The position numbers and the translations under genes were made by a program. DNA of 26,223 bases. Source: Psammoneis japonica. Taxonomy: Eukaryota. Location of the stretch: positions 248,001 to 274,223 of the forward strand of contig QPGO01000105.1 in NCBI GenBank assembly GCA_008632985.1. Direction: 5' to 3'. The notes under the pieces were generated by a model. That model was given only the letters and a program-made list of their open reading frames with translations. It was not told the origin of the DNA and did not search any database. Each line of letters opens with the position of its first letter. Position 1 is the first letter of the stretch. Below are positions 2,286-26,223 of this stretch, piece after piece.

Positions 2286-3304
2286 ACAAACAGCCCTCTC
2301 TCTACGTCTGAGGACAACTTTGAGTTGTTATTGTTGTCAAGGGACCTACGATTCTAATGAGAGATCTTGGCGCGGTTATTGTCAAGAAATGTATCGCATT
2401 GGTCTTTCTGACGTTCTCACCCTTTGCGCAATACAGTATACGGATGGCCACGATGTGAGCCGCTGCGTTTATTGCGATAGCCAAGGCAGAGTGTCGTCTT
2501 TTTGGACCCTTTGTTGAATCAGATTGTGGTATTGCAGTCGCCGCCGTCGCTTGTGTACGGTAGTCCAAATGTCTGATGTTGCTTCTTGGACGATATAGAA
2601 GAAGTGCCTTCTTCTTGTTGTCCGCTTTCCAGTGTGGTGAATGGAGTTTTTGATCTTTGTACACATGTGACTGCTTCGTGTTAGACGTTATTTCGAATGG
2701 TTTTGTAGATACTATAGCTTTTTTAGTTTGCCGCCTACCTACGTTTCAAATAGTTTCGAGTGCTGCTACTTACTGTACCTCGTGACCACGTCTGGCATTT
2801 TTTGTGAAGCTGCTACTAAGCACGAACAAACTGCCAGCACTATGATTATCTACTCTAGTACTATAAAGGAGAGAGACAGAAACCTCCTTTCGCGTCATTG
2901 AAAAACATGTAGGAGTTGTTCCTACCACGTGCAAGGCAGTGCTTTGTGTTTTTTGTAGCCTTAACTCTCGTCATTGCGGACCGTCGCAAAAAGTGAGGCG
3001 CCGCAAAGCAGAGCATCAACAGGCAGACCGTGCAACAAGCAGACTGTGACACTGTAAGTTAGACTGTGTGGGTGTGTCATGCATACCCTATTCCATCGTC
3101 GCTGAATTTTTTCGTTTGCCTTCCTTTTGTTTCTGCGCGGCCGACGTGGAGTGCTGTTGGCACCGCAGCGCAACCAGCATCGTGGGGCATTGCTGTTGTT
3201 ATTGTAGTGAATCGCTGTCGTTGTTGCCATAGCACACACAGAACTACTCTCGATATTACTCAACAGCTCTAGAGTAAACACACACACAAGCCATCTCTAT
3301 CATC

Positions 3305-5158: not shown

Positions 5159-5466
5159 GCAGGTCTTCAGTTTGTGTAAAAGTATAGTGGTAGTTGCATG
5201 GACAATAATGGCATTGCCTCTAGTCCTCTCGTATGACATTGTGTGCATTTCCACACGATTTGGAATATCAAAACACTCTCCGCACGTTGTTTTTGTCGTC
5301 ATTGCACTCTGGCTTGCATCACCACAAGTCATCAGCGTTGCATTCAAGACATCCTTCTGAGTCGGCACCCTTGCCTCTCTTGTCGCAATTTCTTTCTGTC
5401 GAAACAAATCACCTTGTCATGCCATTTTGCCATGTCCTCATGTGCTTTTACAACAACAGCACACTG

Positions 5467-5890
5467 AAGGCCACGTCATTGTTGTCCATGTAACTTCCAC
5501 CACACTTTGACACAAAATGAAGAGCTGTTCAATTGTTTTTCTTGTCGACACTGTCCTTGGGTTTGTCATTGTTCACCAGTGGTTGCTCGCCATTCTTTTC
5601 TTCTTGATTGGTTGCATTGGGCGGAGCATTGGCATCATCTTGACTGCAATGTCGTGGCAATGTCAATCGTGCCGTAGATGTCTCAATCATGGCAGGCAGC
5701 AGTGCAGAGGTGGAGGAGACGGGCGCTGCTGCTGCTGCAGCGGCGACTGGCAGCAGAGTGTCTTGAATGCAATGCTGTTGACTTGTGGCGATGCATGCAA
5801 GCCAGAGAGCAATGACGACAAAAATGACGTGCTGAGAGTGTTTTGATGTTTCAAATCCTGTGGAAATGTGCACAATGTCATGCAAGAGGA
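5467..5890. pseudogene. Scrambled, degenerate duplicate of the ubiquilin 3' CDS and 3' flank
   Basis: 5467-5647 is an inverted copy of ~5040-5220. 5650-5757 is a direct copy of ~4916-5043 with an internal deletion. 5757-5890 is an inverted copy of ~5224-5352. Confidence 0.85.
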
Positions 5891-5894
5891 TGAA

Positions 5895-6970
5895 TGGAGC
5901 TGCTGATTTTGCAGGAACTCAATTGAAATGTTGTCTGATCAAAGGTGTGGTTTCATGACACCCTTCTCACATGCTGTGCTGAAACACCTCCCAACCCAAC
6001 CCAGGAGTGTGATGGATGCGGGCACAAATTTTCCACACAACATGTGCTGGAGTGCCAAAAAGGCGGCCCAGTCATCTCTTGACATGACTGAGTCAGAGAA
6101 GAGCCAGCTGACATTTTTGGCAAATCCACCAAGCCCTCTTCAGTGCACGACAAACCTTCAATTGACCCTGGCCACAACTCAAGGAGCTCAGTGGACAGCA
6201 CTGAGAAGAGTGAGAGCAAGCCAATGTCTCCAAGACCCTTCGCAAATCAAAAGATGGTGACAGAGGCAACATTCTGGCATGAGGTTGGGTGGCAAACATT
6301 GACTGGTGCCATTCTTGATGTTCGAGTCACAGACACGGTTGCAAAATTGCATCACTCAAAATGTCCAGAGAAAGTCCTGGATGGAAGCCCCCCATCCCCC
6401 CATGAGATGGAGAAGAAGTGTGGGTGCCTCAAGCCATGCCTTGACCAACAACGACACCCCCACTTTTCACCCTTTGGTCCTTGCACATTGAGCGGTGGGT
6501 CAATCAGAAAAGAGGCAAAAGCCACCCTGCACGCAATTGTGCGCGCGCTGCACAAACCAGTTTCTTCAGCGGTGCGCTGCAAAAAAGAAATGTTTTGACT
6601 CACACGGTGAAGAGAGGTGCCTTTGATTAGATGACATTTCAACTGATTTCCTGAGAAGTTGACACTCACACATGGATGGACAGGCAGACTGACAACAGTT
6701 GTTTCTGGCTGGTGCAAATTCTGTGCATGACTCTGAGAGCCGCGGCGATGATTCCAGCAGCAGAGGAGGGCCTCTCTGGCTCCTGGAGTGGAGGCACAGA
6801 GGCGTGCAACTGGTTGATGATGCAAGGTCTAGCTTGACAAGACTCAAAGCTCTTTGGAAAATTGTGAGAGACTTGGAAGGGCTCGCTGATGGAGAACCCA
6901 TTCCAATGTCTCCGCAAGATCTGTCTGACACGTTGACAGTCAGAGCACGGACGACTGTTCCATTCAGCTG
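5895..6970 (+). mobile_element. Degenerate non-LTR retrotransposon remnants (C-terminal CCHC knuckle + restriction-like endonuclease, CRE/R2-like)
   Basis: Frame-broken translation gives CDGCGHKFSTQHVLECQKGG (CX2CX8HX3C knuckle), RGNIL, ILDVRVTD, EKK..LKPCLDQQRH.FSPF and IRKEAKATL, matching the RLE-type non-LTR C-terminus. A second RGD..WSGGTE-like fragment lies near 6740-6860. Confidence 0.7.
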
Positions 6971-7210
6971 AGAGTGATCCACTGTCTGCCTCCCGAAAAG
7001 GCATCGACGAACCTGCGTCAGCATTCCTGTCTGTCTGCCCGCTGAAATCAATGCCTGCAGATGCCAATGAGAAAATGATTTGAATTCAAAGGGGTTGCTG
7101 CCCTGTCAGTTAGCTGCAGTCATCATTGCCTCCCCATCTCATCTGCTGTTTTTTGCGCTGTCATTCATCTGCTTGTTGTTGCCTTTGCAAGTTGTTTCAA
7201 TCTAACAACC

Positions 7211-8522
7211 ATGTCCGTTGCCCCACCTGCTGTTGACCTTGCAACTGACGGCTGGCATGATGACAACAATGGCAATGATCTGCCAGCCTTTTTGCGCAGA
7301 GTTGCTGACGACGACGATGATGATGATGAGGATGATGTGCCAGCTCTTTTGCGCAGAGTTGCTGATGACGACGACGATGATGATGATGAGGAGGACGATG
7401 ATGAAGAGCAGCAGCCTGTTGATGAAGAGCAGCAGCCTGTGGATGTCTGCAATGCATCGAACATTTTAGATGCTGTCTTCTGTGGTCTTGACGATGATTG
7501 GTCTACTCCCATTGTGTTTCCCATCTCTGTTGTCCATTCCAAAGGCGATCCACCCTCTTTTTTCATGGACACCAACATGAGCGAGTTCCTTGGCAAAGAT
7601 GGGCCTGGCACTGCTCTTCATCGACACGCGCATGTCTGCTTTGACACAGCGAAGTGCCCCCCACTGCCCGCTTCTATAAAGCCTTTCTCCAAGGCTGACA
7701 CAAGCCATGCCACTTTGTCAGAGGATTTCTGAAAATGTGTGGCAAGCAATGGCTTTGAGGCAATTTCCAATGGTGGTGGCCGCATCATCTGTTCCTGCCA
7801 TGTCCCGCACTGCCAGAAACCCAAAAGACGCGATGCAACAGTTCCCTCAACATCACACAGGAAAACATCCCTTCGTGATGATCGCTGTCGCAACAATCGC
7901 AAACACGGCAACAAGAAGCATCCTCGACAGCAGCAGACAACCAAGGCCCCAAATCTTGAGGACACGTGTGGTTGGAACATTCGCATCCAAGCTGACGCTT
8001 TTGGGCATTTCTTCAAGTGTGGCACTGGCCGTGGTTTTCATTGTAATCACCACCAACGACTTCCCGAAGAGATTTCCAAGAAGATTCGTCACCTGAGTTC
8101 ATCCACCCTCTTGTCTATGAAGCGAATGAGAAAGGGTCGCTTGGGGGCAGGCCATGCATGCAACTGCATTCTTGCCAATGAGGAATGCTTCCTGTCAAGG
8201 CAGCAGGTTCGTTGCGTCATGCGACAGGCTGACAAGGAAGAGTTAACCCCATTCCTACCCTCTTCTGAAGACACCGCTTTGGATGACAGCATCCTGGAGC
8301 TTCAGAGGTTTTTTCAGAGTCGTGAAGACATTGAATGCTCTGTTCTTGCAAGTGGAGCTAACGCTGTGCAGACGCCAACCCGGGAACGCAACCTGCGTTT
8401 CCAGTCCTCGTTGCTTTTCAATGAATCTCATGTCAATGGAGAAAGGGAGATCCAGAACCTCGAGGAACTTTGTTCCGAGGTGGTCGACCAGTGCAGGCGT
8501 GAGAGGGAAGCCGCCCAGCTTG
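7211..8522 (+). pseudogene. MULE transposase copy 1, N-terminal part (acidic repeats + FAR1/WRKY-like Cys/His DNA-binding region)
   Basis: ATG 7211 (MSVAPPAVDL). Premature TGA at 7730 (CGA in copy 2). Motif TCGWNIRIQADAFG.FFKCGTGRGFHCNH. Collinear with copy 2 up to the LTR insertion at ..GCCCAGCTTG. Confidence 0.75.
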
Positions 8523-8889
8523 TGCAGCATGCGACTGTTGTGTGCATGTTTATGATTGCACATTATTTGTGTGTCAATCGTACCACAGTCGTGGATGCGT
8601 ACAAAGGACAGAACGATCACACAGAGTTGATCGGATGTCGAGAATTGCAAATACGATCGATTGACGATGTTGACATCTTGCGTGTCAATGGCAATCGTAT
8701 CCGGACAATCTGTTGTCACGAATATATTCTCCGAAAGGCCTTTTGTCTGTAGAAGCAGTGCAGAAGCTTTAGGCCATTGAGAACTCGTTCGGAGAAACCA
8801 AAAATCACAGAGCAAAATTTAATCTCATAATTTCCACTTTTCGTACACTATTCTACTTTCGTTTACACTCGTTCTTCGAGCATAGTGCA
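8523..8889 (+). repeat. 5' LTR (367 bp, TGCA...TGCA)
   Basis: Direct repeat of 12882-13248 with TG...CA termini and an imperfect 10-bp terminal inverted repeat. Confidence 0.93.
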
Positions 8890-8943
8890 TTGTGCATACA
8901 CACCACAGAAGGTAAAAAGCACGGAAAATGAAAATTTTAACTA

Positions 8944-11900
8944 ATGTGCCTTTGCAAATTCTTCTATGAACAGGAACGAATCGCATCAGTTCTGCTGGAA
9001 TCGATTTCCGAGCGGAAGAAGCTCAAGCCGAGCAGTGCCTCAAGATGGAACGCTGTTTTTCGTCTACCAGACAAAAGGATTCGCTCTAATGCGGTCTGTT
9101 CCAAGTGTCTCAGGACCAAGGACTCTACAAGAACACAGCATTGTCGAAACATCCACACCAAGTCATGGTTGGGTAGAATTTCAAGTCTTGAGTCGATCAG
9201 ATCCGAGAAACACGTCTGCCATGCAAGGAGAGACTATTGGAGAGTTTTTTGAGACCGAATTGATGATCCTCGAGTCCAAGGAGCAAGAGGGAATCGTTGG
9301 AAAGTACCTCAAGCGTCTCACAACACATGTCCTCCGAGGAAATGCACTTCAGAATCAGGGAAATTATTTTCGAGACGACCTGAAGAAACCAGAGCTGCTT
9401 GACAGCGAGAAAGCCTCTGATAGACCCAAGAGGTCAATGATGAGAGTCCACGCGACCCTCAGATGGATTCTAAGTCGAATCTAGCGGGAAACCGAGCGCT
9501 GATTTATCAGCTATCACTCGCACCGCAAGGATGGCAGCATCAGTCTACTGTCCAAAACAATCAACCATTGCAACTCATCCTTGATGAACTGATTAAGTTT
9601 TGAGTCATCTAAAGGTCGTTCATGACGTCCGTGACGAAAAAACATGTCAACTCAGGCTCTGATAGCGCAGTTGGTTCCAAAATAAAAAAGGTTCCAAATT
9701 TGGTTCCAAAAATGGTCTCCCATATGGTACCACCACAATCCAAAGTGAATGAAAGGTCCAATCTTTGAAAAAAGAATACCTGCATCACGGATTAAAGCCA
9801 TTCTGAAAATGAATTAGCGAAAGAGTGCAAGGGTGGCTCTAAAAGAGACCCAAAAATACGACGCTCTAAATGGCAATCGCACGCGAACGTGACGAGAGCA
9901 GAAACACCTCTGTGAAAGAGGAATTGAACTGAACTATGAACTAGGCAGTTCACAAAAACAATTAAAGCGAGTTCCTCGATAAAGGAACGTAAAAATAAGA
10001 GCGAAAATTAAGACTCTAAAACGCTTAACGAATGAAACTGTCAATTTAGAAAAATTGACCCGATCGAGTCCGATCAAAAAATCACACCGCTCAAGGAGCA
10101 CAACGCGTTACAGGACGTCTGGAAACCCAGAAAAAGCATCACAGTATGTTGTACGAGTCCTATTCTCGCTGTCCACATGACTGCTTCTCTGAGAAAAGCA
10201 AAAAATAAGCTTCTACGTGTTCTCTCGATAAAGAACATCGTCAGCCCATGATTTTACGCAACATCATGCGAAGGTTGAGAACCAAAAAATCCGCCACCAA
10301 AAACTTGGGAAACCAAGGGTGAGCTCTTTACGACTGACAGTAAACACCGAATTCAGTTCTCACTGTGCGAAATTTAAGGCACACTGATGTTCAAACAGTG
10401 TGTGTTGAAAACACTAAATTTTCTTCAGGTTCAAATGATGTGATCATGGGACGCGACTTAATGTCCAGTCCTACAAGTCACATTGGACTACGCAAATGAA
10501 GAAATCTAATGGGAAGAAGCAATTACCTTATGAAGAATGTTCACACACTCTTCGATGCCGATGTTTTCAAGCTGAAAACCGATCACATTGAAAAATGTGA
10601 CGCCGTGAATAGAGTTAATAACGGAACCAATGGTCCTCGACTCACATTGTCACGCCATCGATCTTAATCAAGTGACAACTACGGCGATGCATCTAACCCA
10701 AATGAACACAACCAACTCAATCTTCTTCTTAAGAGGTTGAAATCGTTTTGAAAAGTTCCTCAGACGAATGCATGGGAAGCATCAGTGGATCTCATCGTGG
10801 AAAATCTGACGCGATTCCACGACGCGTGAGAACCTTCTCCTATCATAGTCTTTGGAGGCGTCCAATCAAAAGGAGTTTGACCTATTATGAAAGATTGAAG
10901 TCTTAAGAATGAAATTACTCTGAACAAGTCGCTCTGAGACTCATTGTCCAAAGAAAACAGGTCGAGTTCGACCGCATCCGACACTCAGAAGCTTAGTATA
11001 AGGTTCATACAGGTGGTGTATCCTTTACCCAATATTCAGGAAATACTATTGAAGCAAGAACGTTTCATATATGCAATCTATTTGATTCAAACATGGAATG
11101 CCACCATGTCAAATAAAAAAAGCACACGTCGTGCTCACACGAAAATCATGCCGTGGGGAGAAAATGAGTACTATGGACTTCCAATGAGAATCTATAGAGC
11201 CCCAGATATTTTTATACAACACTTGAGTGAACTCATAACAGGTTTGAAGTTGTCAGAACGACTATATGTGATCGTTTGTGCCTGACAAAAGTGACTTCAA
11301 AATATCACCTGTACAAGTAACAGCTTAATACGGCATTCAAACGACTAGAACAGTTGCTTAGAAGGTTAACAACAAAAGTCCTTCACTATTTAACTTGAAA
11401 TAAACTATCAAGACTTCCATACGTAACGATATGCAATCGATTACAAAGAAAATGGAGGCGATTCAAGCAATCGCAACACGAGAAAAACGTAAAGAACACT
11501 ACGACATCTCGTTGTCATACGTTACTATTATCGAGACATGTAGTCTCAACGATCTCCTGTACAATACTAGCCAAATTCACCTCAATAAAGGTCAAACGGC
11601 AAAAGTACAAGTACGGAACGAAAAGTCTCGGAAAATATGGAGCGTATCAAATCAAAAACTATATTGTTATCATACACGGATTTCAATATTATACGTTACA
11701 ACGGAAAAAAGAACTTCTGTCCATAGTGAAAACACTTATAAAATTCCGAAATATACTGTTTGGCCAACAGATTTATACATATACGGATCATAAGACACAA
11801 CGGACAAAGTCATACGTTGACAACTTCAGTCCCGAATTAGAATACAACGAGGGCAAGGCGAACATCGTCGCGATAGACGCGATCAGCCGACTTACTATAG

Positions 11901-12870
11901 AAAATTGAATCCTACGACAATGTCCTACCGTTAAAACGGGATAAAGACATTCCCTCCAAATTGTCGGACGCGACATATCATACGAACACTTTTCGTGGAG
12001 GCGAGCGAGATCGAAAAATGCTCATGTCACAAGGATAAAATCGCCTTTTTAAAGGACGATTTAGGAAAAAACAGTGACAGATTGGTATACATTATACGTA
12101 TCCACTTCACACTGGCAAAAGACAATCTCACAACACCCGTACGGTTGTATTGTACAATGTACGAGGCAAGACATTAAAATATACATCATGTCGACACACG
12201 AGATGTGCCAAAGATCTAGAAAAAGAAAAGAAAAATGGACATTTATCCACTTAGTGCACGAAACCAGTGCCTTCGGAATGACAAAATAACACCGGTATGT
12301 CAGAAAGAAACGTCCAAATAACGATTAAAATCCAACTGATAGATGGTTGAAGTACAAAAAAAAAATCCATAATGGAATTCATAACCATCACAGGATTGAT
12401 TATCAAGACGAAATAATGGTCATAATATCTTTGACCATCGTTTATTATTACTTATGAAACGTGGTAGTGCAGCAGAGCAATATGGCATATAAAGTAAGCC
12501 CGCCAAACTACATGAAATCCACAAGTAAGTAAGTGAACGCCACAATTAAGAGCGTACATTAAGTACTGAGCACGATGCTATGTACAATCGATATCAGGAA
12601 AAACACTTACTCCAGGACAATTAGTCCTTGTGTTCATATCAACAAGAACGTCAATGAGAATACTCGACGTAATACTATATATATACATATTAAGTGAGAA
12701 ACAAACAATGTCACTCTCAAAAGACATTCGGAAATTGGAACGGCTCTATATTGCCTATACAAAACAACAACAGTCATTGCTAATGGCACAATACAGTGAA
12801 AGTGGAGACATTATTGACACTGTCGATGTCCGTCGAATAATCCACTTACAAATGACTCTAATGTGCAATT
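8944..12870 (+). pseudogene. Decayed Gypsy gag-pol
   Basis: Fragments across frames: gag-like NALQNQGNYFRDDLKKP (~9340-9390); protease tail IMGRDLM (~10444); RT YPLPNIQEILLK and PWG..Y..LPMRI..APDIF (~11020-11215); RNase H EKELLSIVKTLIKFRNILFGQQIYTYTDHK and GKANIVA.DAISRL (~11705-11895); integrase NPQ..ERVH..L and TPGQLV (~12515-12630). Many stops and indels. Confidence 0.8.
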
Positions 12871-12881
12871 AGGGAGGCGAA
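12871..12881 (+). promoter_or_regulatory. Polypurine tract of the Gypsy element
   Basis: AGGGAGGCGAA immediately precedes the 3' LTR start TGCAG at 12882. Confidence 0.75.
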
Positions 12882-13248
12882 TGCAGTATGCGACTGTTAT
12901 ATACATATTTATGATTATATATTATTTATATGTCAATCGTACCACAGTCGTGGATGCGTACAAAGGACAGAACGATCACACAGAGTTGATCGGATGTCGA
13001 GAATTGCAAATACGATCGATTGACGATGTTGACATCTTACGTGTCAATAGCAATCGTATCCGGACAATCTGTTGTCACGAATATATTCTCCGAAAGGCCT
13101 TTTGTCTGTAGAAGCAGCACAGAAGCTTTAGGCCATTGAGAACTCGTTCGGAGAAACCAAAAATCACAGAGCAAAATTTAATCTCATAATTTCCACTTTT
13201 CGTACACTGTTCTACTTTCGTTTACACTCGTTCTTCGAGCATAGTGCA
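12882..13248 (+). repeat. 3' LTR (367 bp)
   Basis: Begins TGCAGTATGC and ends GCATAGTGCA (9/10 inverted match); followed by the TSD CTTG. Confidence 0.93.
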
Positions 13249-13252
13249 CTTG

Positions 13253-15244
13253 GTCCTGAGGACAACCTCTTTGTCGGTGCTGCTTGGACACTCAAGGGCG
13301 AGACACGATTGTTTCGCCAAATGCCACATGTGATTAAAGTGGACGCCACATCTCACACCAACAACGAGAAAAGGCCATGCCTGACTTTCTCCGTCCGTGC
13401 GCCAAATGGCTCTTGCATTGTTTTCCTCCGAATCTTTCTTCCTGATCAAACACAGGGGACGTTTTGGTGGGTGTTTCAGGTGGTGCTACCCACTCTACTT
13501 GATGCAGACACACTGCGGCGAATCAAGTTGGCATTGACGGATGGAGACTCCCAAGAAATCTCGGAGTTGCGCAGTGCAATTCAAGTCTACATGCCGGATG
13601 TCTTCCAAGGATGTTGTGGCTGGCATGTTGTGGAAAAGGGATGGTTGCGTCACTGTCCTGGTGAGACCTGTGTGTCTCCTGGCCAGAGGCGTGAGACCTG
13701 CAAGCAATTTGTTGCCGCAGTCAAAGCCTGGCTGCATTCATTCATGCACCCTGGAGGGTGCGAGAATGAAGATGAACTCAAGGTCTCCAAGTTGTTGCTC
13801 ATCATGTTTCTGCATTCCCCAAGAGTCCTCCAGATGTGCGACGGCATCGAGTCAACCGTTCAGCGCGAGACAAGGTGTGGGCCTGGGAGAACTGCTGTGC
13901 CTTCCACCGCAAGAAATTCCTCCGCCATCATGAGGAAGCAAACAGTTCTAGCCACGAGGGTGCCAACTTTGGCATGAAGAACCATTCTGCTCCAGTGCTG
14001 CCATTGCAGAACTTGGCCACCAGCGCCATGAACTTTGCCATGCAATCGGACGTAAAGGTTGCAGAGCTGCACGCAGAAAGCAACCGCATGGCAACAACTA
14101 AATGCCTCTGGTCTAATCTGCCTGCAGCGGACCATGTCGTCACCATGTGTGAGGGTGTCATTGCTGAATGGTGGAAGCATCAACATGACTTCCACGTGCG
14201 GTGCTGCGGCAAGGAGGATGGCGAACACCCGACATGGGAGGCAGTCCACAAGAAATCCAATGAAGCTCCATCGTCAAACGAAGAGGAAGAAGCCAATCCT
14301 TTCTTTTCCAAAATGCCCAAGTTTCGAAGAGTGCAAAAAGTGAAGCTAGATGCAGAGGGTGTGCTTCGCTGCAGCTGCGGAGAGTTCCAGAGAATGGGCA
14401 TTGGCTGCACGCACTTCCTTGCGGTTGGCCAGCACGAACTTGGCAATGCACATTTGGGATTCACACACCATGATGTTTCCTTTGTTTGGCGGCGCAAGCA
14501 CTTGGATTGTTTGATTCCATCCTCGACAATGATGTTCGAGGACCATGCCTGCCTGAATGGTGGCAGCCAGCACCTCAACCAACTTCAAGCACACCGCCGG
14601 ATGAATCCGTTTTTGACAAACCGCAGGATGTTTGTCACTCACTCCACAATTGCAGTTCCGATCAAGCAAACCGAGCACTGCGTTGTGTGGACCCTGCACA
14701 ATTGGGTCTAAGCGCAATTGGTTGCTCCCAATTGACCAATGTCGATGCAAGCCAACGTGACCAACTGGGAGATGTGTTCAATCTTGAAGACGATGAGCAC
14801 AGTGCAGACGGCGATCTGTTTGCTCTCGAAGAATCAGAAATGAACAGTTCTCCTCAAGACCCTCCTGCAAATGTCACTCCCACAAACATGCGACAGGTGT
14901 TGGCCCCCAAGTTGTCGACTCTGTGTGGTCCATGCGAGTCGGAGAACATCCATCAAATGGAAGCACCCGACTTATCTCACGTTGTTAAATCAATCGATGA
15001 TCTAATTGTGGACATCCGAGGAAAGTTTCACACACACCGTGATGCGCAAGAGACCAATGACACAAGCAGTGAGGGGCCGCGATGGGTGTCCAACTGTTCT
15101 GAACGTGACTCCAAGAAGCGACGCACTCATGTTTGTAGAAATGGTCTAAATCTCTGTTGGCCACCCACTTGTTTGGTGCCAGACTTTCTTGCACAATTGC
15201 AAATGGATTGGAGACAATCTGTTGGAACTCAAACTAGATCTTAA
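13253..15244 (+). pseudogene. MULE transposase copy 1, DDE core + SWIM zinc finger
   Basis: IKVDATSHTNNEKRP (first D), LTDGD (second D), CGWH (CxxH), NSSSHEGANFGMK (E region) and LRCSCGEFQRMGIGCTHFLAV (SWIM). Frameshift near 13865 and a ~43-bp deletion at 14503 relative to copy 2. Confidence 0.88.
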
Positions 15245-17363
15245 TTTTGAGTGCATCGTAGAGGACCTTCTTGCAAAAGGCCTCAGTCTCTCAACTGAGA
15301 GGGCGCAAACTGTTCACTGGGCATGGAACAGACAGCCGCTGCTTGGGATTTATGAGTTCTCGAGGACACTCATGTGACTGTAACTCAACGACGGACGAGG
15401 GGAGGTTGCCTGTGTCAGCAAGTTTCAGGTGCTCAACCAACTCATCCCAGATCACTTGCGAGTCACCGAATGGGATTGCATCGAACATTTGGTGGCAAGC
15501 ACCTGCATTCGTGCGTCCAGGCAGGTGAACTGCTGTTTCGTCATCACCGGTCGTTTCGAAAATAACGGAGTCCCGAAAGTGCGTGTCCTTAAAGAGCCTC
15601 TCCTCAAGTTTGCCCTGCTTCTTGCCCTCACACAGGCAGGACTCTGTGTGCCTTGTTCTCCTGAACGTGGCCACTCCCTTCTCTGTCTTGAGCCGTTGAA
15701 GTAGAGNNNNNNNNNNNNNNNNNNNNNNNNNNNNNNNNNNNNNNNNNNNNNNNNNNNNNNNNNNNNNNNNNNNNNNNNNNNNNNNNNNNNNNNNNNNNNN
15801 NNNNNNNNNNNNNNNNNNNNNNNNNNNNNNNNNNNNNNNNNNNNNNNNNNNNNNNNNNNNNNNNNNNNNNNNNNNNNNNNNNNNNNNNNNNNNNNNNNNN
15901 NNNNNNNNNNNNNNNNNNNNNNNNTTGTAGACTTTCAACTGATCTGCTTGGTTTGGAGTCCCATTCTTGGAAAGGGCACGGACAAAAAGGCAAGCCGTGG
16001 AGGTAAGAGACACCTCATTCTGCCATTGACGAAATGGCACAAGCTCTGGGTCGGGCAACTGACCCCATCGTTGGAAGGTCATTTGGCCACCCCGACCACC
16101 AGTCCTCTCCCTGAATGTGTTGAACAGAAAAATGATGAGCCTGGAAACATGACATCCAAACTTTTCGTTCACCATGTCCCTCCTTAACTTCCTTGGAGGG
16201 ACCAGCAGAAGAATCCAACTGGCGACACCAAGGAAGCAGGGTCCAGGTGCATGGCAATGAAAAGCATGGTGCACCGACTGCAATTCAATGCAGTTGAGGT
16301 TGAACTGCACACCCAACCGAACAATTGAGTCACAAACAATCATGGCGAACCAATCAGGGTCAAGATTGCAGTGGGTGCGATTGGCCGGGAACCCTGGAAT
16401 CCACTCGACTGCATCGCCGGCATCTCGCAGGCTGTTGCTGATCTTGAGTCTTGACACGTCGAATCGATCACAAGCTCTCACCAGGTCGTCGAGAATTGCA
16501 TCCTGGTTGCGCCTGTTGCAAAAGAGGTCATCAATGGATTTCCTCATCTGTCCATTGACTGCATGGCGACGGGGGACACCATCAGGGCCATCCTTGATCT
16601 TGGAAACACCACAGACAGGTTCGATGTCACCATTTTTGTCGTCGACGTGGGTGTCACAGTCCTCCTTCTTCTCTGGTGGAGCCGGCCTTGAGAGCGAACA
16701 ACAAATGACTTCAATCACAACAGAGGGATGGAGAGTGCCAGCAAATTCTTGTTGGCGCGTGGGGTTGAGACGATCCTCAAAGGGATTGTCGCCATCCACA
16801 AATGGCGCATCTTTGGCAAGCACTTTTTTGACATTTTGGAGACAGCAATCATCGCACCAATTGCAGTTGGGTCGCACTCCGCATCGTCTCCAACACTCGG
16901 AGAACAACAGGTGCCCTGCCGCAGGGACGGAACGCAGTGACCGTCTGGTGAGTCATCCCGGTCTCCAGACTGCCCACCACAATGACCCGCGTCGCAGCAG
17001 TTCGTTGAGCGCTGACAAATGGTTGTGGTTAAAGCACCGTCGGGGTTCTCGGTTTTCTTGGGGATTGGGTTGAAACGGCAAGCATGGGACATCAAGCGGT
17101 CAAACGAATCAAAATCAATTTCATTGACGATGTCGGAGAGTTCGTCACCCTTGCCCAACAGAACAAGTAAATCATTGGCATGATTTTTGTTCGGATCATG
17201 CAATTGCAGACCTGAACCGGATGTCGAATGGGAGTCAAGGCAGTTCCCAACCGAAAAAAGCAAAATTGCCAGGAGCGTCTGGCAGTGAGGAAAAACAGCA
17301 GTTTTCAGAAGGTGGGCTTGTTCTGGTGCTTGCGGCCAAAAGTGAATTCGATGAACATGATGC
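15234..17363 (-). pseudogene. MULE cargo gene B, copy 1 (5'-truncated, +2 frameshift near 16825, premature stop at 15291)
   Basis: Reverse complement of 18634-20761. ORFs 16715-17263 and 15291-16907 translate to the same protein as 17543-19924 and 19937-20761. Confidence 0.75.
15707..15924. other. N-run (218 bp) inside cargo gene copy 1
   Basis: Run of n in the sequence. Confidence 0.99.
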
Positions 17364-17620
17364 TGTCAAGTGATCCTGACGTTGTCAGTTGGGTTTGTCA
17401 ACCACTTCAGTTTGAACAATTTACTTCTCCTTACATTTACTCTTCAGCATGTGTGGTCCATTAAAAACTGTTCAGCAGTCATCATTCGAATTCTCAATGA
17501 CTGGCATTTGGTCAAAAATTTGAATTTTCGGTCGCCTCAACGGTGCACACAACCATCACACCGGCACAATGTTGTTTTGCGACGACGTTTTTCATGCCGC
17601 CGATGAAGCCACCGAACCGC

Positions 17621-17698
17621 GTAAGTGTCGCTGTGTGGTTTTTTTTACCTGTCAAGCCATCTTACAGTGTCTCACACTGTGCTTGTTGTTTTTCCCAG
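17621..17698 (+). other. Probable spliceosomal intron in cargo gene B
   Basis: GTAAGT donor, CTCAC branch-like motif at ~17671, pyrimidine tract TTGTTTTTCCCAG acceptor; 78 bp, phase 0. Confidence 0.65.
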
Positions 17699-18014
17699 CC
17701 AAAAAGAGGGAATCACGGATCGCATCACGATCGCAATCACGATCGCAACACACCACGAGTCCGCCGCAAACGTGCTCGCGAACATTCCTTTTCCAAGAAT
17801 CGGTCGCCCCAGAAGCGTCGGACTCGTCGTCGTGGCAAGAGCAAAAACCCTCCGCGACCTACATCCTTTGTGTCGAGTTTTTTTTCTGGCGTGAAATGCA
17901 GTCTCTTGGCTGTTTTTGGTTCTTTTTTCACTCCCCCAACTGTGATGCCGCCAGTGCCCAGTCCACCACAGCCTTCTCTGTTGACTTCTCCACCACTTGT
18001 TGGTGTGATCGATC

Positions 18015-18110
18015 ACTCGTTGGCTTGTGCCAGTGACTCGGGGAAGAAGACCGCCGGCTTGGACTCGTTGGCTTGTGCCAGTGACTCAGGGAAGAAGACC
18101 ACCGGCTTGG
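18015..18110 (+). repeat. 48-bp tandem duplication (SLACASDSGKKT[A/T]GL x2)
   Basis: ACTCGTTGGCTTGTGCCAGTGACTC.. starts at 18015 and at 18063. Confidence 0.95.
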
Positions 18111-20078
18111 AACCCACCATGTTGGAGCAAGAGCCGACTTCTCCACTGGCAAATGCTGGTGTGATCAAATGCTCTGTGGCGAACCGCCAGAAAAAATCTC
18201 TGTCATCGTCAAGTTCTTTGACATCCTCTCAGGATTTGCTGACTTCTCCACTGGTGAATCCCGGTGTGATTGATCACTCTGCGGCGAATTCCCAGAAAAT
18301 GTCGCGGCCATCGTCGATTTCGTCGACGTCTCATGAGTCAACGTCTACACTGTTGCCACCTGCTGGTGTCAGTGACCGCTCTGCAGCGAACCGATCGTCG
18401 CCATTGTTGGATTCGAAACTGTCGTCGATGCCGGTTCTCTTGCCAAAAGAGGCTTTGTCCTCTCGCCAAGAGGTGTTCAACCTCTTGCTTTCATTGTCAC
18501 CCTCCCAGGAAGATGACGATTCTATTTTTAATCACGGCTTTTTGGTGGAGGAAATGAAGCCCTCCTTCTTTCTGCTTCCCAAGGGAAACAGAAATGAGTT
18601 GGTTTCTTTTGGGAAACTGTCGGCCGAGCGCTGGCATTGTGTTCATCGAATTCACTTTTGGCCGCAAGCACCAGAACAATCCTGCCTTCTGAAAACTGCT
18701 GTTTTTCCTCACCACCAGACGCTCCTGGCAATTTTGCTTTTTTCGGTTGGGAACTGCCTTGACTCCCATCCGACATCCGGTTCAGGTCTGCAATTGCATG
18801 ATCCGAACGAAAATCATGCCAATGATTTACTTGTTCTGTTGAACAAGGGTGACGAACTCTCCCACATCGTCAACGAAATTGATTTTGATTCGTTTGACCG
18901 CTTGACATCCCATGCTTGCCGTTTCAACCCAATCCCCAAGAAAACCGAGAACCCTGACGGTGCTTTAACCACAACCATTCGTCAGCGCTCAACGAACTGC
19001 TGCGACGCGGGTCATTGTGGTGGGCAGTCTGGAGACCGGGATGACTCACCCGACGGTCACTGCGTTCCGTCCCTGCGGCAGGGCACCTGTTGTTCTCCGA
19101 GTGTTGGAGACGATGCGGAGTGCGACCCAACTGCAATTGGTGTGATGATTGCTGTCTCCAAAATGTCAAAAGCACTTGCCAAAGATGCGCCATTTGTGGA
19201 TGGTGACAATCCCTTTGAGGATCGTCTCAACCCCACGCGCCAACAAGAATTTGCTGGCGCTCTCCATCCCTCCATTGTGATCGAAGTTGTTCGTTGTTCG
19301 CTCTCAAGGCCGGCTCCACCAGAGAAGAAGGAGGACTGTGACACCCACGTCGACGACAAAAATGGCGACATCGAACCTGTCTGTGGTGTTTCCAAGATCA
19401 AGGATGGCCCTGATGGTGTCCCCCGTCGCCATGCAGTCAATGGACAGATGAGGAAATCCATTGACGACCTCTTTCGCAACAGGCGCAACCAGGATGCAAT
19501 TCTCGACGACCTGGCAAGAGCTTATGATCGATTCGACGTGTCAAGACTCAAGATCAGCAACAGCCTACGAGATGCCGGCGATACAGTCGAGTGGATTCCA
19601 GGGTTCCCGGCCAATCGTACCCACTGCAATCTCGACCCTGATTGGTTCGCCATGATTGTTTGTGACTCAATTGTTCGGTTGGGCATGCAGTTCAACCTCA
19701 ACTACATTGAATTGCAGTCGGTGCACCATGCTTTTCATTGCCATGCACCTGGACCCTACTTCCTTGGTGTCGCCAGTCGGATTCTTCCACCAGCCCCTCC
19801 AAGGAAGTTAAGGAGGGACGTGGTGAACGAAAAGTTTGGATGTCATGTTTCCAGGCTCATCATTTTTCTGTTCAACACATTCAGGGAGAGGACTGGTGGT
19901 CGGGGTGGCCAAATGACCTTCTGACGATGGGGTCAGTTGCCCGACCCAGAGCTCACGCCGTTTCGTCAATGGCAGAATGAGGTGTCTCTTGCCTCCGCGG
20001 CTTGCCTTTTTGTCCGTGCCCTTTCCAAGAATGGGACTCCAAACCAAGCAGATCAGTTGAAAGTCTACAAGCGTTTTT

Positions 20079-20351
20079 NNNNNNNNNNNNNNNNNNNNNN
20101 NNNNNNNNNNNNNNNNNNNNNNNNNNNNNNNNNNNNNNNNNNNNNNNNNNNNNNNNNNNNNNNNNNNNNNNNNNNNNNNNNNNNNNNNNNNNNNNNNNNN
20201 NNNNNNNNNNNNNNNNNNNNNNNNNNNNNNNNNNNNNNNNNNNNNNNNNNNNNNNNNNNNNNNNNNNNNNNNNNNNNNNNNNNNNNNNNNNNNNNNNNNN
20301 NNNNNNNNNNNNNNNNNNNNNNNNNNNNNNNNNNNNNNNNNNNNNNNNNNN
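20079..20351. other. N-run (273 bp) inside cargo gene copy 2
   Basis: Run of n in the sequence. Confidence 0.99.
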
Positions 20352-20750
20352 AGTCCCACCTGTGTGAGGGCAAGAAGCAGGGCAAACTTGAGGAGAGGCT
20401 CTTTAAGGACACGCACTTTCGGGACTCCGTTATTTTCGAAACGACCGGTGATGACGAAACAGCAGTTCACCTGCCTGGACGCACGAATGCAGGTGCTTGC
20501 CACCAAATGTTCGATGCAATCCCATTCGGTGACTCGCAAGTGACCTGGGATGAGTTGGTTGAGCACCTGAAACTCACTGATGCAGGTGACCTCCCCTCGT
20601 CCGTCGTTGAGTTACAGTCGTGTGAGCATCCTCGAGAACTCATAAATCCCAAGCAGCGGCTGTCTGTTCCACACCCAGTGAACAGTTTACGCCCTCTCAG
20701 TCGAGAGACTGAGGCCTTTTGCAAGAAGGTCCTCTACGATGCACTCAAAA

Positions 20751-23700
20751 TTAAGATCTAGTTTGAGTTCCAACAGACCATCTCCAATCCATTTGTGGTT
20801 GCACAAGAAAGTCTGGTGTTAAACAAGTGGGTGGCTGACAGAGATTTAGACCATTTCTACAAATTTGAGTGCGTCGCTTCTTGGAGTCACGTTCAGAACA
20901 GTTGGACACCCATCGCGGCCCCTCACTGCTTGTGTCATTGGTCTCTTGCGCATCACGGTGCATGTGAAACTTTCCTCGGATGTCCACAATTAGATCATCG
21001 ATTGATTTGACAATGTGAGATGAGTCGGGTACTTCCATTTGATGGATGTTCTCCGACTCGCATAGACCACACAGAGTCGACAACTTGGGGGCCAACACCT
21101 GTCGCATGTTTGTGGGAGTGACATTTGCAGGAGGGTCTTGAGGAGAACTGTTCATTTCTGATTCTTCGAGAGCAAACAGATCGCCGTCTGCACTGTGCTC
21201 ATCGTCTTCAAGATTGAACACATCTCCCAGTTGGTCACGTTGGCTTGCATCGACATTGGTCAATTGGGAGCAACCAATTGCGCTTAGACCCAATTGTGCA
21301 GGGTCCACACAACGCAGTGCTCGGTTTGCTTGATCGGAACTGCAATTGTGGAGTGAGTGACAAACATCCTGCGGTTTGTCAAAAACGGATTCATCCGGCG
21401 GTGTGCTTGAAGTTGGTTGAGGTGCTGGCTGCCACCATTCAGGCAGGCATGGTCCTCGAACATCATTGTCGAGGATGGAATCAAACAATCCGTCCAGACC
21501 CTCAACATGACGGTCCCCGTTGAACGCATGGTGAAAGTGCTTGCGCCACCAAACAATGGAAACATCATGGTGTGTAAATCCCAAATGTGCGTTGCCAAGT
21601 TTGTGCTGGCCAACCGCAAGGAAGTGCGTGCAGCCAATGCCCGTTCTCTGGAACTCTCCGCAGCTACAGTGAAGCACACCCTCTGCATCTAGCTTCACTT
21701 TTTGCACTCTTCGAAACTTGGGCATTTTGGAAAAGAAAGGATTGGCTTCTTCCTCTTCGTTTGACGATGGAGCTTCATTGGATTTCTTGTGGACTGCCTC
21801 CCATGTCGGGTGTTCGCCATCCTCCTTGCCACAGTGCCGCACGTGGAAGTCATGTCGATGCTTCCACCGTTCAGCAATGATGCCCTCACACATGGTGACG
21901 ACATGGTCCGCTGCAGGCAGATTAGACCAGAGGCATTTAGTTGTTGCCACACAGTTGCTTTCTGCATGCAGCTCTGCAACCTTTACATCCAATTGCATGG
22001 CAAAGTTCATGGCGCTGGCGGCCAAGTTCTGCGACGGCAGCACTGGAGCAGAGTGGTTCTTCATGCCAAAGTTGGCACCCTTGTGGCTAGAATTGTTTGC
22101 TTCCTCATGATGGCGGAGGAATTTCTTGCAGTGGAAGGCACAGCAGTTCTCCCAGGCCCACACCTTGTCTCACGCTGAACAGTTGACTCGATGCCATCGC
22201 ACATCTGGAGGACTCTTGGGGAATGCAGAAACATGATGAGCAACAACTTGGAGACCTTGAGTTCATCTTCATTCTCGCACCCTCCAGGGCACATGAATGA
22301 ACACAGCCAGGCTTTGACTGCGGCAACAAATTGCTTGCAGGTCTCACGCCTCTGGCCAGGAGACACACAGGTCTCACCAGGACAGTGACGCAACCATCCC
22401 TTTTCCACAACATGCCAGCCACAATGTCCTTGGAAGACATCCGGCATGTAGACTTGAATTGCACTGCGCAACTCCGAGATTTCTTGGGAGTCTCCATCCG
22501 TCAATGCCAACTTGATTCGCCGCAGTGCATCTGCATCAAGTAGAGTGGGTAGCACCACCTGAAATGCCCACCAAAACGTCCCCTGTGTTTGATCAGGAAG
22601 AAAGATTTGGAGGAAAACAATGTGAGAGCCATTTGGCGCACGGACGGAGAAAGTCAGGCATGGCCTTTTCTCGTTGTTGGTGAGAGATGTGGCATCCACT
22701 TTAATCACATGTGGCATTTGGCGAAACAATCGTGTCTCGCCCTTGAGTGTCCAAGCAGCACCGACAAAGAGGTTGTCCTCAGGACCAAGCTGGGCGGCTT
22801 CCCTCTCACGCCTGCACTGGTCGACCACCTCGGAACAAAGTTCCTCGAGGTTCTGGATCTCCCTTTCTCCATTGACATGAGATTCGTTGAAAAGCAACGA
22901 GGACTGGAAACGCAGGTTGCGTTCCCGGGTTGGCGTCTGCACAGCGTTAGCTCCACTTGCGAGAACAGAGCATTCAATGTCTTCACGACTCTGAAAAAAC
23001 CTCTGAAGCTCCAGGATGCCGTCATCCAAAGCGGTGTCTTCAGAAGAGGGTGGGAATGGGGTTGACTCTTCCTTGTCAGCCTGTCGCATGACGTGACGAA
23101 CCTGCTGCCTTGACAGGAAGCATTCCTCATTGGCAAGAATGCAGTTGCGTGCATGGCCTGCCCCCAAGCGACCCTTTCTCATTCGCTTCATGGACAAGAG
23201 GGTGGATGAACTCAGGTGACGAATCTTCTTGGAAATCTCTTTGGGAAGTCGTTGGCGGTGATTGCAATGAAAACCACGGCCAGTGCCACACTTGAAGAAA
23301 TGCCCAAAAGCGTCAGCTTGGATGCGAATGTTCTAACCACACGCATCCTCAAGATTCAGGGCCTTGGTTGTCTGCTGCCGTCGAGGATGCTTCTTGTTGC
23401 CTTGTTTGCGATTGTTACGACGGCGATCATCACGAAGGGATGTTTTCCTGTGTGATGTTGAGGGAACTGTCACATCGCGTCTTTCGGGTTTCTGGCAGTG
23501 CGGGACACAGCAGGAACAGATGATGCGGCCACCACCATTAGAAATTGCCTCAAAGCCATTGCTTGCCGCACATTTTCGGAAATCCTCTGACAAAGCGGCA
23601 TGGCTTGCATCAGCCTTGGAGAAAGGCTTTGTAGAAGCGGGCAGTGGGGGGTGCTTCGCTGTGTCAAAGTGGACATGCGCATGTCGATGAAGAGCAGTGC

Positions 23701-24099
23701 CAGGCCCATCTTTGCCAAGGAACTCGCTCATGTTGGTGTCCATGAAAAAAGAGGGTGGATCGCCTTTGGGGTGGACAACAGAGACGGGAAACACAATGGG
23801 AGCAGACCAATCATCGTCAAGACCACAGAAGACAGCATCTAAAATGTTCAGTGCATTGTGGACATCCACAGGCTGCTGCTCTTCATCAACAGGCTGCTGC
23901 TCTTCATCATCGTCCTCCTCCTCATCACATCATCATCGTCGTCATCAGCAACTCTGCGCAAAAGAGCTGGTGCATCATCCTCATCATCATCGTCGTCGTC
24001 GTCAGCAACTCTGCGCAAAAAGGCTGGTGGATCATTGTCGTTGTTGTCATCATGCCAGCCATCAGTTGCAAGGTCAACAGCAGGTGGGGTGACGGACAT
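20751..24099 (-). pseudogene. MULE transposase with SWIM domain, copy 2 (no insertion; frameshifts near 23925, 23340 and 22170; putative catalytic E->K)
   Basis: ORFs 23848-24099, 23333-23869, 22061-23197 and 20751-22163 carry VDATSLTNNEKRP, LTDGD, CGWH, NSSHKGANFGMK and CSCGEFQRTGIGCTH. Confidence 0.88.
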
Positions 24100-24649
24100 G
24101 GTTGTTAGATTGAAACAACTTACAAAGGCAACAACAAGCAGATGAATGACAGCGCAAAAAACAGCAGATGAGGTGGGGAGGCAATGATGACCGCAGCTAA
24201 CTGACAGGGCAGTGACCCCTTTGAATTCAAATCATTTTCTTGTTGGCATCTGTAGGCATTGATTTCAGCGGGTAGACAGACAGGAATGCTGACGTAGGTT
24301 CGTCGATGCCTTTTCGGGAGGGAAATGGGCAATCGTCCAGCTGCGTGGGTAGCTCTTTATAAACTGTGTAGGAAATGTACCAGGGTTTGTGTAGAATTTG
24401 ATAACGACACAATTCCATTTTGATGGCGACAAGTAGAAACCTACATGGTTTTCCAGTACAAATTTGATAGCGACGCCACGGACGGAATCATTGTCAACGT
24501 GCCAATCACCGCATTATCACAGGTTTTCGATCATAGGGAATTCCTTATTTGGCGCTGAATTTCCTAGACAAGGAAATATAAGAAAATAAGAAAAGGAAAA
24601 AACAATTGGTGATTCAATGCGTGGTTGCAACCGTCATGAACCACTCATC

Positions 24650-25560
24650 TAGAAGTTGATTTGCACAGAGCCTGTGGCTGCCAAAACACCTCTTTTTGTG
24701 CAATGCACTCAATGAGTGAGGCAGACACCATTGGGAGGCACTTTCTCAAGAGGACAAAAAGATGTGCTTCCGTGGTCTCTTCAAGTGCAATCTGCTCCAA
24801 GCAAGCCCACAAAAGCTCAAATTGGTGTGGCAAATCTGGCACACATTGTGCAACAAAACAAAAGAGGAAAGCCTCTTTGTTTTCTTCATTTGACAAGCCA
24901 ATGAGGGGGAAATCAAGATGTGAGCATGAGCGGGGTTTTGGGTCATGGGGGGCTCCTCTCTCAGCAGCCCCCAAATTTCCTCGGATGAAAGGAAAATTTC
25001 CCGCACTTGTTTGGTGCCAGTTGTGACCAACACAGTCCTTTCATCTTGCAGCCAATGTTGTGGTCCACTCATCTCTGTTGGATGGCCAGCACAGAGCACA
25101 GCTGCTGCAGCACTTCAAGCAGCCCGCCACCATGAGAAGCTTGGCGCTGCTTGTCTCTTGTGCCGCAGATGGCTCCTTTCCTTTTGCAATTGTTTTTTCA
25201 TGCAGAGCTGGCAGAAATGCCATTTGACTGCAGTGGCACAGCTGCATGATGTGGCCCAATGCCAACATCATGAGAGGAGGCCAGCACCCACTGTGCTGGC
25301 GGTGGCTGGCTGGCTGGGCTGTGCATCGCAGCTGGCCTTGCCAGCACAGCACCACAAACAAGCACATTTCCTTTGACACCAAACCACAGGAAAATGCACT
25401 CTTGATTGCTTGTCTCTTGTGTTGCAGCAGGCAGATCCTTTCCTTTTGCAACCATTTTTCACAGAGAGCTGGCTGCCAGATTGCCAAGCAACTGATAGAA
25501 ACTGAAGGCAAATGGCAAGAATTCAAACAAACAACTCCTCACTGCTGTCTAAATGGCAGA
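24650..25560. other. Unidentified degenerate, TpA-depleted sequence with a ~70-bp imperfect direct repeat (~25148-25215 / ~25407-25480)
   Basis: Almost no TpA; TGCTTGTCTCTTGTG..CCTTTCCTTTTGCAA..AGAGCTGGC occurs twice; no recognisable protein motif. Confidence 0.45.
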
Positions 25561-25769
25561 TGAGTCTCCGCTCAGAGACCGTCACAGGAGCCGAAAGACG
25601 TGCAAGTCGGTACAATCGGGCCACTGTCATTATTCTTGTGAGCCTTGTGGCTCGAAAGCAAACTACATCGCGCGCGAACGCACGGAACTAAAGCACACAA
25701 AACTGTGCGCGGTAAACTAAACAGCGCGCGATGTTTCGCGCGCACCTAAATCCTGTTCAAATCCTGTCA
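25561..25769 (-). repeat. Candidate Copia 3' LTR (~209 bp, TGA...TCA)
   Basis: Starts TGACAGG right after the PPT. The end is placed at ..GAGACTCA (25561), where composition switches to the TpA-poor flank. The partner LTR is outside the window. Confidence 0.6.
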
Positions 25770-26223
25770 CTCCCCAGTTTGCTTGAGGAGCTACAGAAAC
25801 AGATTCGACTTCGGATGGGATGAAGTTCCAGAACATGAGAGGGTGGAGAAGGTCCCCAGATTTGGGAGTGACCCCAATGCTTGCTGAGAATGTCAGCAGG
25901 ATTGCGGGAGCCCTCGATGAAGTGGAACTCAAGGCAACCAGAGGCAATTGCCTCACGCACACGGTGGAACGACAGTGCGGTGTGTCGCTTGTGTAACTTG
26001 GAGTGCGGGATGGTGGCACTGTCTACAACCGACTTGTTGTCACCGAACATGTAACTGACGTTGCGGATCGGGACGCCAAGGTGGCGCAGGGTGATGCGCA
26101 GGTCGATGATCTGCTCGACACAATTCCTTGCGGCAACAAATTCAGATCCGTAGGTTGCAGTCTCCACGGTGGCTTTGTTTCTTGGAGAACCAATCAGCCG
26201 GGAATTTGTTGAGGAAGTTGGAG
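25561..26223 (-). mobile_element. Ty1/Copia LTR retrotransposon, 3' end (RNase H, PPT, 3' LTR); continues beyond the window
   Basis: Minus-strand DWFSKKQATVETATYGSEFVAAR..MFGDNKSVV..KLHKRHTALSFHRVREAIA..NPADILSKHWG is a Copia RNase H. PPT GGGGAG directly precedes TGACAGG at 25769. Confidence 0.92.

Follow-up and report, generated by a model that had tools for sequence, protein, structure and literature searches.

What a long gene that travels beside a transposase might do for a DNA transposon is the question raised by a stretch of 26,223 nucleotides from Psammoneis japonica (Eukaryota; assembly GCA_008632985.1, contig QPGO01000105.1, positions 248,001 to 274,223 of the forward strand), hereafter the window, with positions counted from its first letter. 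The window holds two inverted copies of one MULE element, 95.4–96.4% identical to each other, and in the right-hand copy the gene in question converges on a MULE/SWIM transposase. An earlier note had picked out short motifs in this gene that suggested a DNA base-modifying enzyme. The interpretation favored here, with somewhat better than even confidence, is that it is the second gene of a two-gene MULE/SWIM transposon, whose intact protein would combine a basic N-terminus, a TET/JBP-type Fe(II)/2-oxoglutarate dioxygenase, and an ADDT-type helical domain, the domains being assigned from predicted models and conserved motifs. The gene and its parts in the right copy are as follows:

17594–20761, plus strand: second gene of the MULE, right copy, about 1,050–1,055 codons
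17594–18532, plus strand: N-terminal region, a basic stretch resembling a nuclear localization signal and then Ser/Pro-rich repeats; not in the left copy
18533–19504, plus strand: predicted TET/JBP-like double-stranded beta-helix domain
19346–19363, plus strand: HVDDKN, the HxDxxN motif, present in both window copies
19427–19468, plus strand: RHAVNGQMRKSIDD, the conserved Arg strand (R-x-S/A..N.Q.RKS.D)
19517–20450, plus strand: predicted helical domain like aGPT-Pplase and helix-hairpin-helix (HhH) glycosylases; limits approximate, partly masked
20354–20371, plus strand: SHLCEG, remnant of the family motif ENxLCK; its Glu codon is half masked

The second gene is a real former coding frame. 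The frame is open from 17501 to 19921, with an ATG at 17594, meets an in-frame TGA at 19922–19924, and then resumes to a stop at 20759–20761. Between 17501 and 20077 it has one stop in 859 codons against 20–28 in each of the other five frames—a control that matters because this TA-poor region has open frames of 100–270 codons in every frame—and its base composition by codon position is similar to that of the host genes. Most of the family members covering the TGA column have Arg there, and a third genomic copy, seen in contigs of the sequencing run X1, reads CGA, its CG at 19922 standing against TG in the right copy (the stop) and CA in the left. A candidate intron of 78 nucleotides, in frame, may run from GTAAGT at 17621 to CAG at 17698. 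Within the N-terminal region, direct repeats of 93 nucleotides lie at 18133–18330, and across the family the N-termini are variable and do not align. The motifs quoted by the earlier note are all where it placed them in this frame: CDTHVDDKN with its His codon CAC at 19346–19348, RRHAVNGQMRKSIDD at 19424–19468, GHCGGQS..PSLRQG at about 19004–19075, and the C-terminal motif, which the left copy shows as ESCLCEG at 15644–15624 on the minus strand. Its statement that a gene of about 1,000 residues is carried in both copies holds for the right copy but, for the left copy (minus strand, 15291–17363), only from the point matching 18634 onward, the first ~345 codons being absent there. Runs of N cover 273 nucleotides of the right copy (20079–20351) and 218 of the left (15707–15924).

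A full HMMER scan over 1.84 billion representative proteins places the product in a family with 53 relatives passing E ≤ 1e-3, of which 23 also pass E ≤ 1e-10; the top match has 9e-62 and 39% identity. Full-length relatives have about 800–1,200 residues and align over query residues 7–732, with an overall identity across the family of 20–25%; intact members are present in environmental (metagenome) DNA, and the source name of every relative is 'hypothetical protein'. Other routes to an identity were silent: nothing in Pfam matches the window protein, a word-indexed search of proteins drew a blank for its residues 330–807, phmmer and profile searches of PDB sequences gave nothing relevant (the sole row was a DBF4-RAD53 chain at E 0.28), and the ESM Atlas gave no usable match for the window protein or for residues 60–400 of an intact relative, P0007. 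Conservation was counted on a 67-row alignment in P0007 numbering, and the conserved positions include H310, D312, R334, C399, N400, D402, P403, E635, N636, C639, and K640. The family motifs read PHYQ, RQ..D.G...R...G..P..K, CxCHxDxxN, R.S.N.Q.RKS.D, N.CN.DP, and ENxLCK.

Given this alignment, AlphaFold2 modeled P0007 with a pLDDT of 89.6 and a pTM of 0.86, and the N-terminal 474 residues of the window protein with 90.2 and 0.84. In a VIA all-against-all structure search of 48,161 chains, residues ~80–354 of the P0007 model matched NgTET1 at 9.4 (root-mean-square deviation 3.1, 164 aligned), TET2 at 7.7, CMD1 at 7.6, AlkB at 7.5, FTO at 7.3, and CcTet at 6.8, and residues ~18–335 of the window model had NgTET1 (8.4), TET2 (7.3), CMD1 (7.1), and CcTet (6.7) at ranks 1–4. 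Among the best 50 rows for P0007, 43 fell on this domain, nearly all titled Fe/2-oxoglutarate oxygenases. By this comparison the predicted models have a double-stranded beta-helix of TET/JBP type. The HxD pair, whose conservation in homologs the earlier note had proposed to check, is well kept, in 13 of the 13 sequences of an alignment of those covering the site and, in the larger alignment, in 50 of 56 for H310 and 48 of 56 for D312. Because the family keeps this His, it can be taken as genuine rather than as a former Tyr. A candidate 2-oxoglutarate-binding Arg, R334 on the RxS strand, is kept in 49 of 61, and two further conserved His, H113 (39/42) and H132 (43/46), both lie upstream of HxD.

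The C-terminal part, residues 355–685 of the P0007 model, accounts for the other 7 of those 50 rows, led by PaMx11 gp46/PUGT at 7.1 (228/287) and followed by QNG1/DUF2419 (6.1 and 5.9), AGOG (5.3, 4.9, and 4.5), and MagIII (4.4). In its ENxLCK motif, E635 is retained by 31 of 40 sequences and C639 by 31 of 38, so that a conserved Cys of catalytic type with a nearby Glu, as in ADDT proteins, can be read from the alignment. When six phage ADDT proteins were aligned, with invariant residues including E243, T244, and C247, hhalign paired ENxLCK with their E243-T-x-x-C247-K at an E-value of 0.024 with the entire profile, or 0.0086 when confined to the C-domain columns; its global modes gave alignments without meaning. 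The ExxLCE string that had been likened to the tail of aGPT-Pplase is this family motif, and the fold match agrees with the likeness. PaMx11 gp46 itself matches Pfam ADDT at 1.6e-27, whereas the family relatives do not match. Passages of PMC8989533 report that M6 gp51 and ViI gp247 lost their activity when either the Glu or the Cys of the motif was mutated, and that the ADDT Cys is thought to attack C6 of phosphorylated 5-hydroxymethyluracil (5hmU).

That the gene belongs to the MULE, as had been supposed, is borne out by related loci, of which six from metagenomes were drawn with a 10-row subfamily alignment and sample one branch of the family only. Two of these, L001 and L003, carry a relative of the second gene on the plus strand, at 3988–7392 in L001, followed by a convergent MULE/SWIM transposase of 1,071–1,085 residues on the minus strand. 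The two transposases are 99% identical and the flanking DNA differs; the DNA shared by the two loci ends at inverted termini that enclose just the two genes, ~7.6 kb in total. A third locus, L002, has the same convergent pair, its transposase sharing 61% identity with the L001 one. In the window the transposase has Pfam matches to MULE (PF10551, 2.3e-9) and SWIM (PF04434, 2e-4), both of which are also found in L001, and it shares 31% identity with the intact L001 transposase (E 2e-60). Three loci besides the window thus have the convergent pair, in two cases between inverted repeats, and the second gene is an integral part of the transposon and not a chance passenger. Internally deleted copies circulate there too, L003 having a ~1.3-kb deletion at ~3097 inside the second gene relative to L001 (4675–5955). 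Long open reading frames (ORFs) flank these elements (L001 132–3029, 966 aa; L001 11039–12964, 642 aa; L003 8293–11289, 999 aa); they have no Pfam match and no mutual similarity and are probably host or other mobile genes.

The arrangement of the two copies in the window is the following:

18634–24321: right copy, the part shared with the left copy
20751–23929, minus strand: MULE/SWIM transposase of the right copy, split into three reading frames (Pfam)
24291–24321, minus strand: right copy, terminal inverted repeat on the transposase side
17364–18633: stretch between the copies, 1,270 nucleotides, single-copy within the window
13249–17363, minus strand: left copy, inner part, with the truncated second gene (15291–17363) and transposase; 95.8–96.4% identical to the right copy
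8523–13248: insertion of 4.7 kb splitting the outer from the inner part of the left copy
6989–8522, minus strand: left copy, outer part, including the terminal repeat at 6989–7019

The terminal 31 nucleotides are the same at 6989–7019 (plus strand) and 24321–24291 (minus strand), and in both copies the transposase, split into three frames, is convergent with the long second-gene frame. At the other, cargo end, no terminal repeat was found within the window by short-word BLAST, and a purine/pyrimidine match was no better than shuffles. The window lacks this terminus because the right copy is joined at 17364–17367 to the truncated left copy, the two standing head-to-head, with the left copy cut at the equivalent of 18634. 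A contig of the X1 run, representing another genomic copy, shows 22 letters of the terminal repeat on the plus strand 8 nucleotides before 17368, and the complete element is therefore ~7 kb long, with the gene starting ~230–260 nucleotides inside its left end. The two window copies are thus a rearranged or aberrantly transposed pair rather than two clean insertions. A stretch of 43 nucleotides in the transposase region of the right copy, 21492–21534, is missing from the left copy. The insertion at 8523–13248 has terminal direct repeats of 300 nucleotides (8523–8822 and 12882–13181, 95% identical), is AT-rich (GC 0.40), and shows a TpA ratio of 0.67, i.e., without depletion; it looks like an element of the long-terminal-repeat type that arrived after the hypermutation described below or escaped it. 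Of two host genes, at 3278–5158 and 45–2285 and without evident introns, one encodes a ubiquilin-like protein (ubiquitin, UBQLN1, and UBA domains) and the other a 746-residue ORF with three repeats of ~350 residues (a period of ~1,050 nucleotides) and no clear Pfam family.

Both window copies of the second gene are non-functional relics, judged dead because of their stops, frameshift, and truncation: besides the TGA of the right copy, the left copy has a 2-nucleotide gap near 16828 that shifts its frame and a premature stop at 15293–15291, at the place of a CGA in the right copy. Among 5,366 aligned positions, 213 differ between the copies, 205 of them by transition. The 76 that lie within the second gene are spread evenly over codon positions 1, 2, and 3 (30, 21, and 25), and those in the transposase frames are likewise even. 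Adjacent double differences set CA against TG in 47 of 54 cases, while the single ones (n = 105) comprise 65 of CG against TG or CA, 28 of TA against CA or TG, and 12 others. With the third genomic copy from the X1 contigs, 69 of 73 differing places are transitions, and at four sites among the rows listed this copy apparently has TA against CA in the right copy and TG in the left. These copy comparisons indicate that both TA and CG decay to CA/TG.

The same signature is written in the composition of the window. The observed/expected ratio of TpA is 0.03–0.17 in the element and flanking repeats (0.08–0.17 in the element alone) against 0.5–0.8 in the two host genes and the insertion, and that of CpG is 0.4–0.8 against ~1.0. 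Taken over 5159–8522 and 13249–26223, the repeats have TpA at 0.03–0.3, CpG at 0.4–0.8, and CpA/TpG at 1.3–1.9. Tyr makes up 0–0.7% of the element proteins (0–0.2% in the right-copy transposase) against 4.0% in a host ORF, and His plus Cys amount to 7–11% of the element proteins; where the closest relative, P0003, has 15 Tyr, 1 is still Tyr in the window protein, 5 are His, and 2 are Cys. The suspicion that His and Cys here are mutated Tyr was thus well founded, and a host process turning TpA and CpG into CpA/TpG has heavily hit the window copies. A 2026 preprint describes TpA-to-TpG/CpA hypermutation of integrated viral DNA in Bigelowiella natans, finds transposon domains overrepresented among TpA-poor coding sequences, and puts forward adenine deamination by an enzyme of the ADAT2 type (bioRxiv 10.64898/2026.01.13.699255). 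The TpA signature of the window matches that description, and differs from it in lying in transposons and in coming together with CpG decay. The window adds an independent second case of foreign DNA hypermutated from TpA to CpA/TpG, a process described so far in this single preprint.

Returning to the intact protein, it is probably, by analogy with phage enzymes, a two-step DNA base modifier, with oxidation of a 5-methylpyrimidine followed by Cys-mediated substitution at the C5 methylene. Oxidation of a DNA pyrimidine at its 5-methyl group, turning thymine into 5hmU or 5-methylcytosine (5mC) into 5-hydroxymethylcytosine, would fall to the first domain; the cysteine of the second might then attack C6 and swap the C5 substituent for a nucleophile, yielding a bulky modified base, which could in turn mark or shield the DNA of the element. 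The analysis itself shows the gene, the family, the tie to the transposase, the predicted folds, and the conserved motifs; what the protein would do chemically, what it would act on, and how it would serve the transposon are drawn from the likeness to phage thymidine hypermodification.

Several observations weigh against this reading. A distal metal-binding His was already not evident to the earlier note, and within the domain no conserved His follows HxD in the 67-row alignment. No Pfam domain is found at E ≤ 0.01 in 28 relatives, and Tet_JBP and ADDT are absent from all 17 relatives searched even at E ≤ 10. Foldseek against PDB returned no match for either model (best E 0.22 and 0.067). Seven phage TET/JBP proteins compared with the family by hhalign gave no significant alignment: at E 0.1–0.3 the R334-x-S strand is paired with the terminal RxS strand of the TET/JBP barrel, and the strands after HxD are placed on the last two strands of the barrel and not on those after the canonical HxD. 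Judged visually, R...P..K, helix, strand, HxDxxN, strand, and [R/H]-L-S-I follow one another as they do in the first half of the alignment of phage TET/JBP proteins; the two ways of aligning disagree on the strands after HxD, so that any residue-by-residue correspondence is tentative. About 70 C-domain codons are masked in both copies. Finally, phage ADDTs need phosphorylated 5hmU, and no kinase domain was found by Pfam in either gene of the element, in the window or in L001. The TET/JBP identity thus has on its side the HxD pair and a fold search that ranks TET/JBP proteins first for both models, but not Pfam, Foldseek, or a significant hhalign score; of the two-module base-modifier idea, the predicted folds, HxD, and ENxLCK stood, whereas the distal His, the Pfam and Foldseek support, and the proposed link to TpA mutation did not. 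Since there is no kinase and no clear third iron ligand, the function as a base modifier is held at moderate confidence.

Part of this would suit a protein that has kept its folds and lost its chemistry, with a degenerate barrel and a glycosylase-like domain acting as a DNA-binding or base-flipping accessory of the MULE transposase: the distal His that could not be identified, the silence of Pfam, the lack of a kinase partner, and the weak profile matches all speak for it. Yet the residues of catalytic type are the best conserved, HxD (50/56 and 48/56) and ENxLCK (31/40 and 31/38) alike, and modules with a structural role only rarely retain such motifs at an overall identity of 20–25%, so that this account is considered rather unlikely. 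The AlkB and FTO entries among the fold matches raise another option, namely that the N-domain is an AlkB/FTO-type nucleic-acid demethylase which, with the glycosylase-like domain, would make a DNA-repair or dealkylation enzyme. HxDxxN is, however, the TET form of the motif; TET/JBP entries occupy ranks 1–3 with the P0007 model and 1–4 with the window model; and the best match of the C-domain is a thymine-modifying transferase with its catalytic motif aligned. A repair enzyme of this kind is a still poorer prospect than a purely accessory factor.

There is also the possibility that the gene has no role for the element, being a captured host gene in the style of Pack-MULEs or a co-duplicated neighbor, as the lack of a cargo-side terminal repeat within the window might suggest, and as would fit two copies made by segmental inverted duplication. 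This is hardly credible given that the same convergent pair recurs with transposases only 31% and 61% identical, that the inverted termini of L001 and L003 enclose exactly these two genes, and that the X1 contig has the terminal repeat just upstream of 17368. The earlier note had conceived of the enzyme as the cause of the T-to-C change at TpA, which could come about if oxidized or decorated thymines mispaired with G. Action on thymine is plausible, TpA is nearly erased in the element compared with the host genes, and the four listed sites with TA in the third copy have CA and TG in the window copies. The near-identical intact copies in L001 and L003 nevertheless show an ordinary substitution mix, their 52 differences comprising 23 transitions and 29 transversions with only 6 of the 52 touching TA, and the loci with intact relatives have ordinary TpA (0.48–0.79). 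Moreover, repeats that flank the element in the window and are unrelated to it bear the signature just as strongly, CpG decay would not be explained by such an enzyme, and adenine deamination of the ADAT2 type is what the Bigelowiella natans preprint proposes (bioRxiv 10.64898/2026.01.13.699255). This idea found no support in the comparison, and the enzyme is very improbable as the mutator.

If the base-modifier reading is followed, several known systems come closest. With TET/JBP proteins (PF12851: NgTET1, TET2, CMD1, CcTet, JBP1/2, and the phage 5mYOX T-dioxygenases) the family shares the predicted barrel, HxDxxN, a candidate Arg-x-Ser-type strand, and presumably the target, a 5-methylpyrimidine in DNA; it differs in having no Pfam match or located distal His, in an extra N-terminal beta region bearing H113 and H132, and in its fusion to a second enzyme-like domain. 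Fungal KDZ/Plavaka transposons reportedly carry TET/JBP genes, in work of Iyer and colleagues in PNAS in 2014, and would likewise be eukaryotic DNA transposons with a gene of TET/JBP type as a regular companion of the transposase, whereas here the transposase is of the MULE/SWIM type, the companion is far more divergent and has an ADDT-like domain, and the host is a microbial eukaryote. From the ADDT proteins (PF18724, formerly aGPT-Pplase: PaMx11 gp46/PUGT, M6 gp51, ViI gp247) the family is set apart by the absence of a Pfam match, by fusion to an oxidase, and by the lack of a detected kinase, the phage enzymes being free-standing, ~290 residues long, and working with a 5hmU DNA kinase according to passages of PMC8989533. 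A parallel may also be drawn with Rhodococcus phage Tonitrus, in which a Tet_JBP gene (E 7.7e-10) lies ~330 nucleotides upstream of a gene for aGPT-Pplase2; these would be the two activities fused here. In phage clusters of this type the genes are separate, in a cluster of about five that includes a kinase and serves against restriction; here there is a single transposon gene. In phage thymidine hypermodification the TET/JBP activity comes first and that of aGPT-Pplase later, as set out in passages of PMC8989533 and PMC13229309; according to a passage of the latter, trypanosome JBP1/2 and one dinoflagellate JBP homolog are the only enzymes outside phages shown to modify thymine in DNA.

What is already known comprises transposon-borne TET/JBP genes, as reported for the fungal KDZ/Plavaka elements, and phage pathways that join TET/JBP with aGPT-Pplase. 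What apparently lacks a printed account in the library searched is a MULE whose regular second gene fuses the two modules, the family being one that Pfam and Foldseek miss; a full-text literature search found no paper on a MULE carrying a TET/JBP gene, and a broader search turned up only an unrelated dinoflagellate preprint. As these two tools are blind to the family, it is likely missing from current surveys of TET/JBP and ADDT proteins, and it would supply a ready set of unnamed environmental proteins for testing. One may go further and suggest, tentatively and with considerable doubt, that a lineage of eukaryotic MULEs encodes a single polypeptide that oxidizes thymine (or 5mC) and conjugates a nucleophile to the oxidized methyl group without a kinase of the phage type, such that some protists would have hypermodified thymines written by transposons, perhaps shielding the DNA of the element from silencing by the host or from the TpA hypermutation that ruined the window copies. 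A fused oxidase and transferase in a transposon family, if true, would suggest that base hypermodification in the style of phages occurs in eukaryotic genomes.

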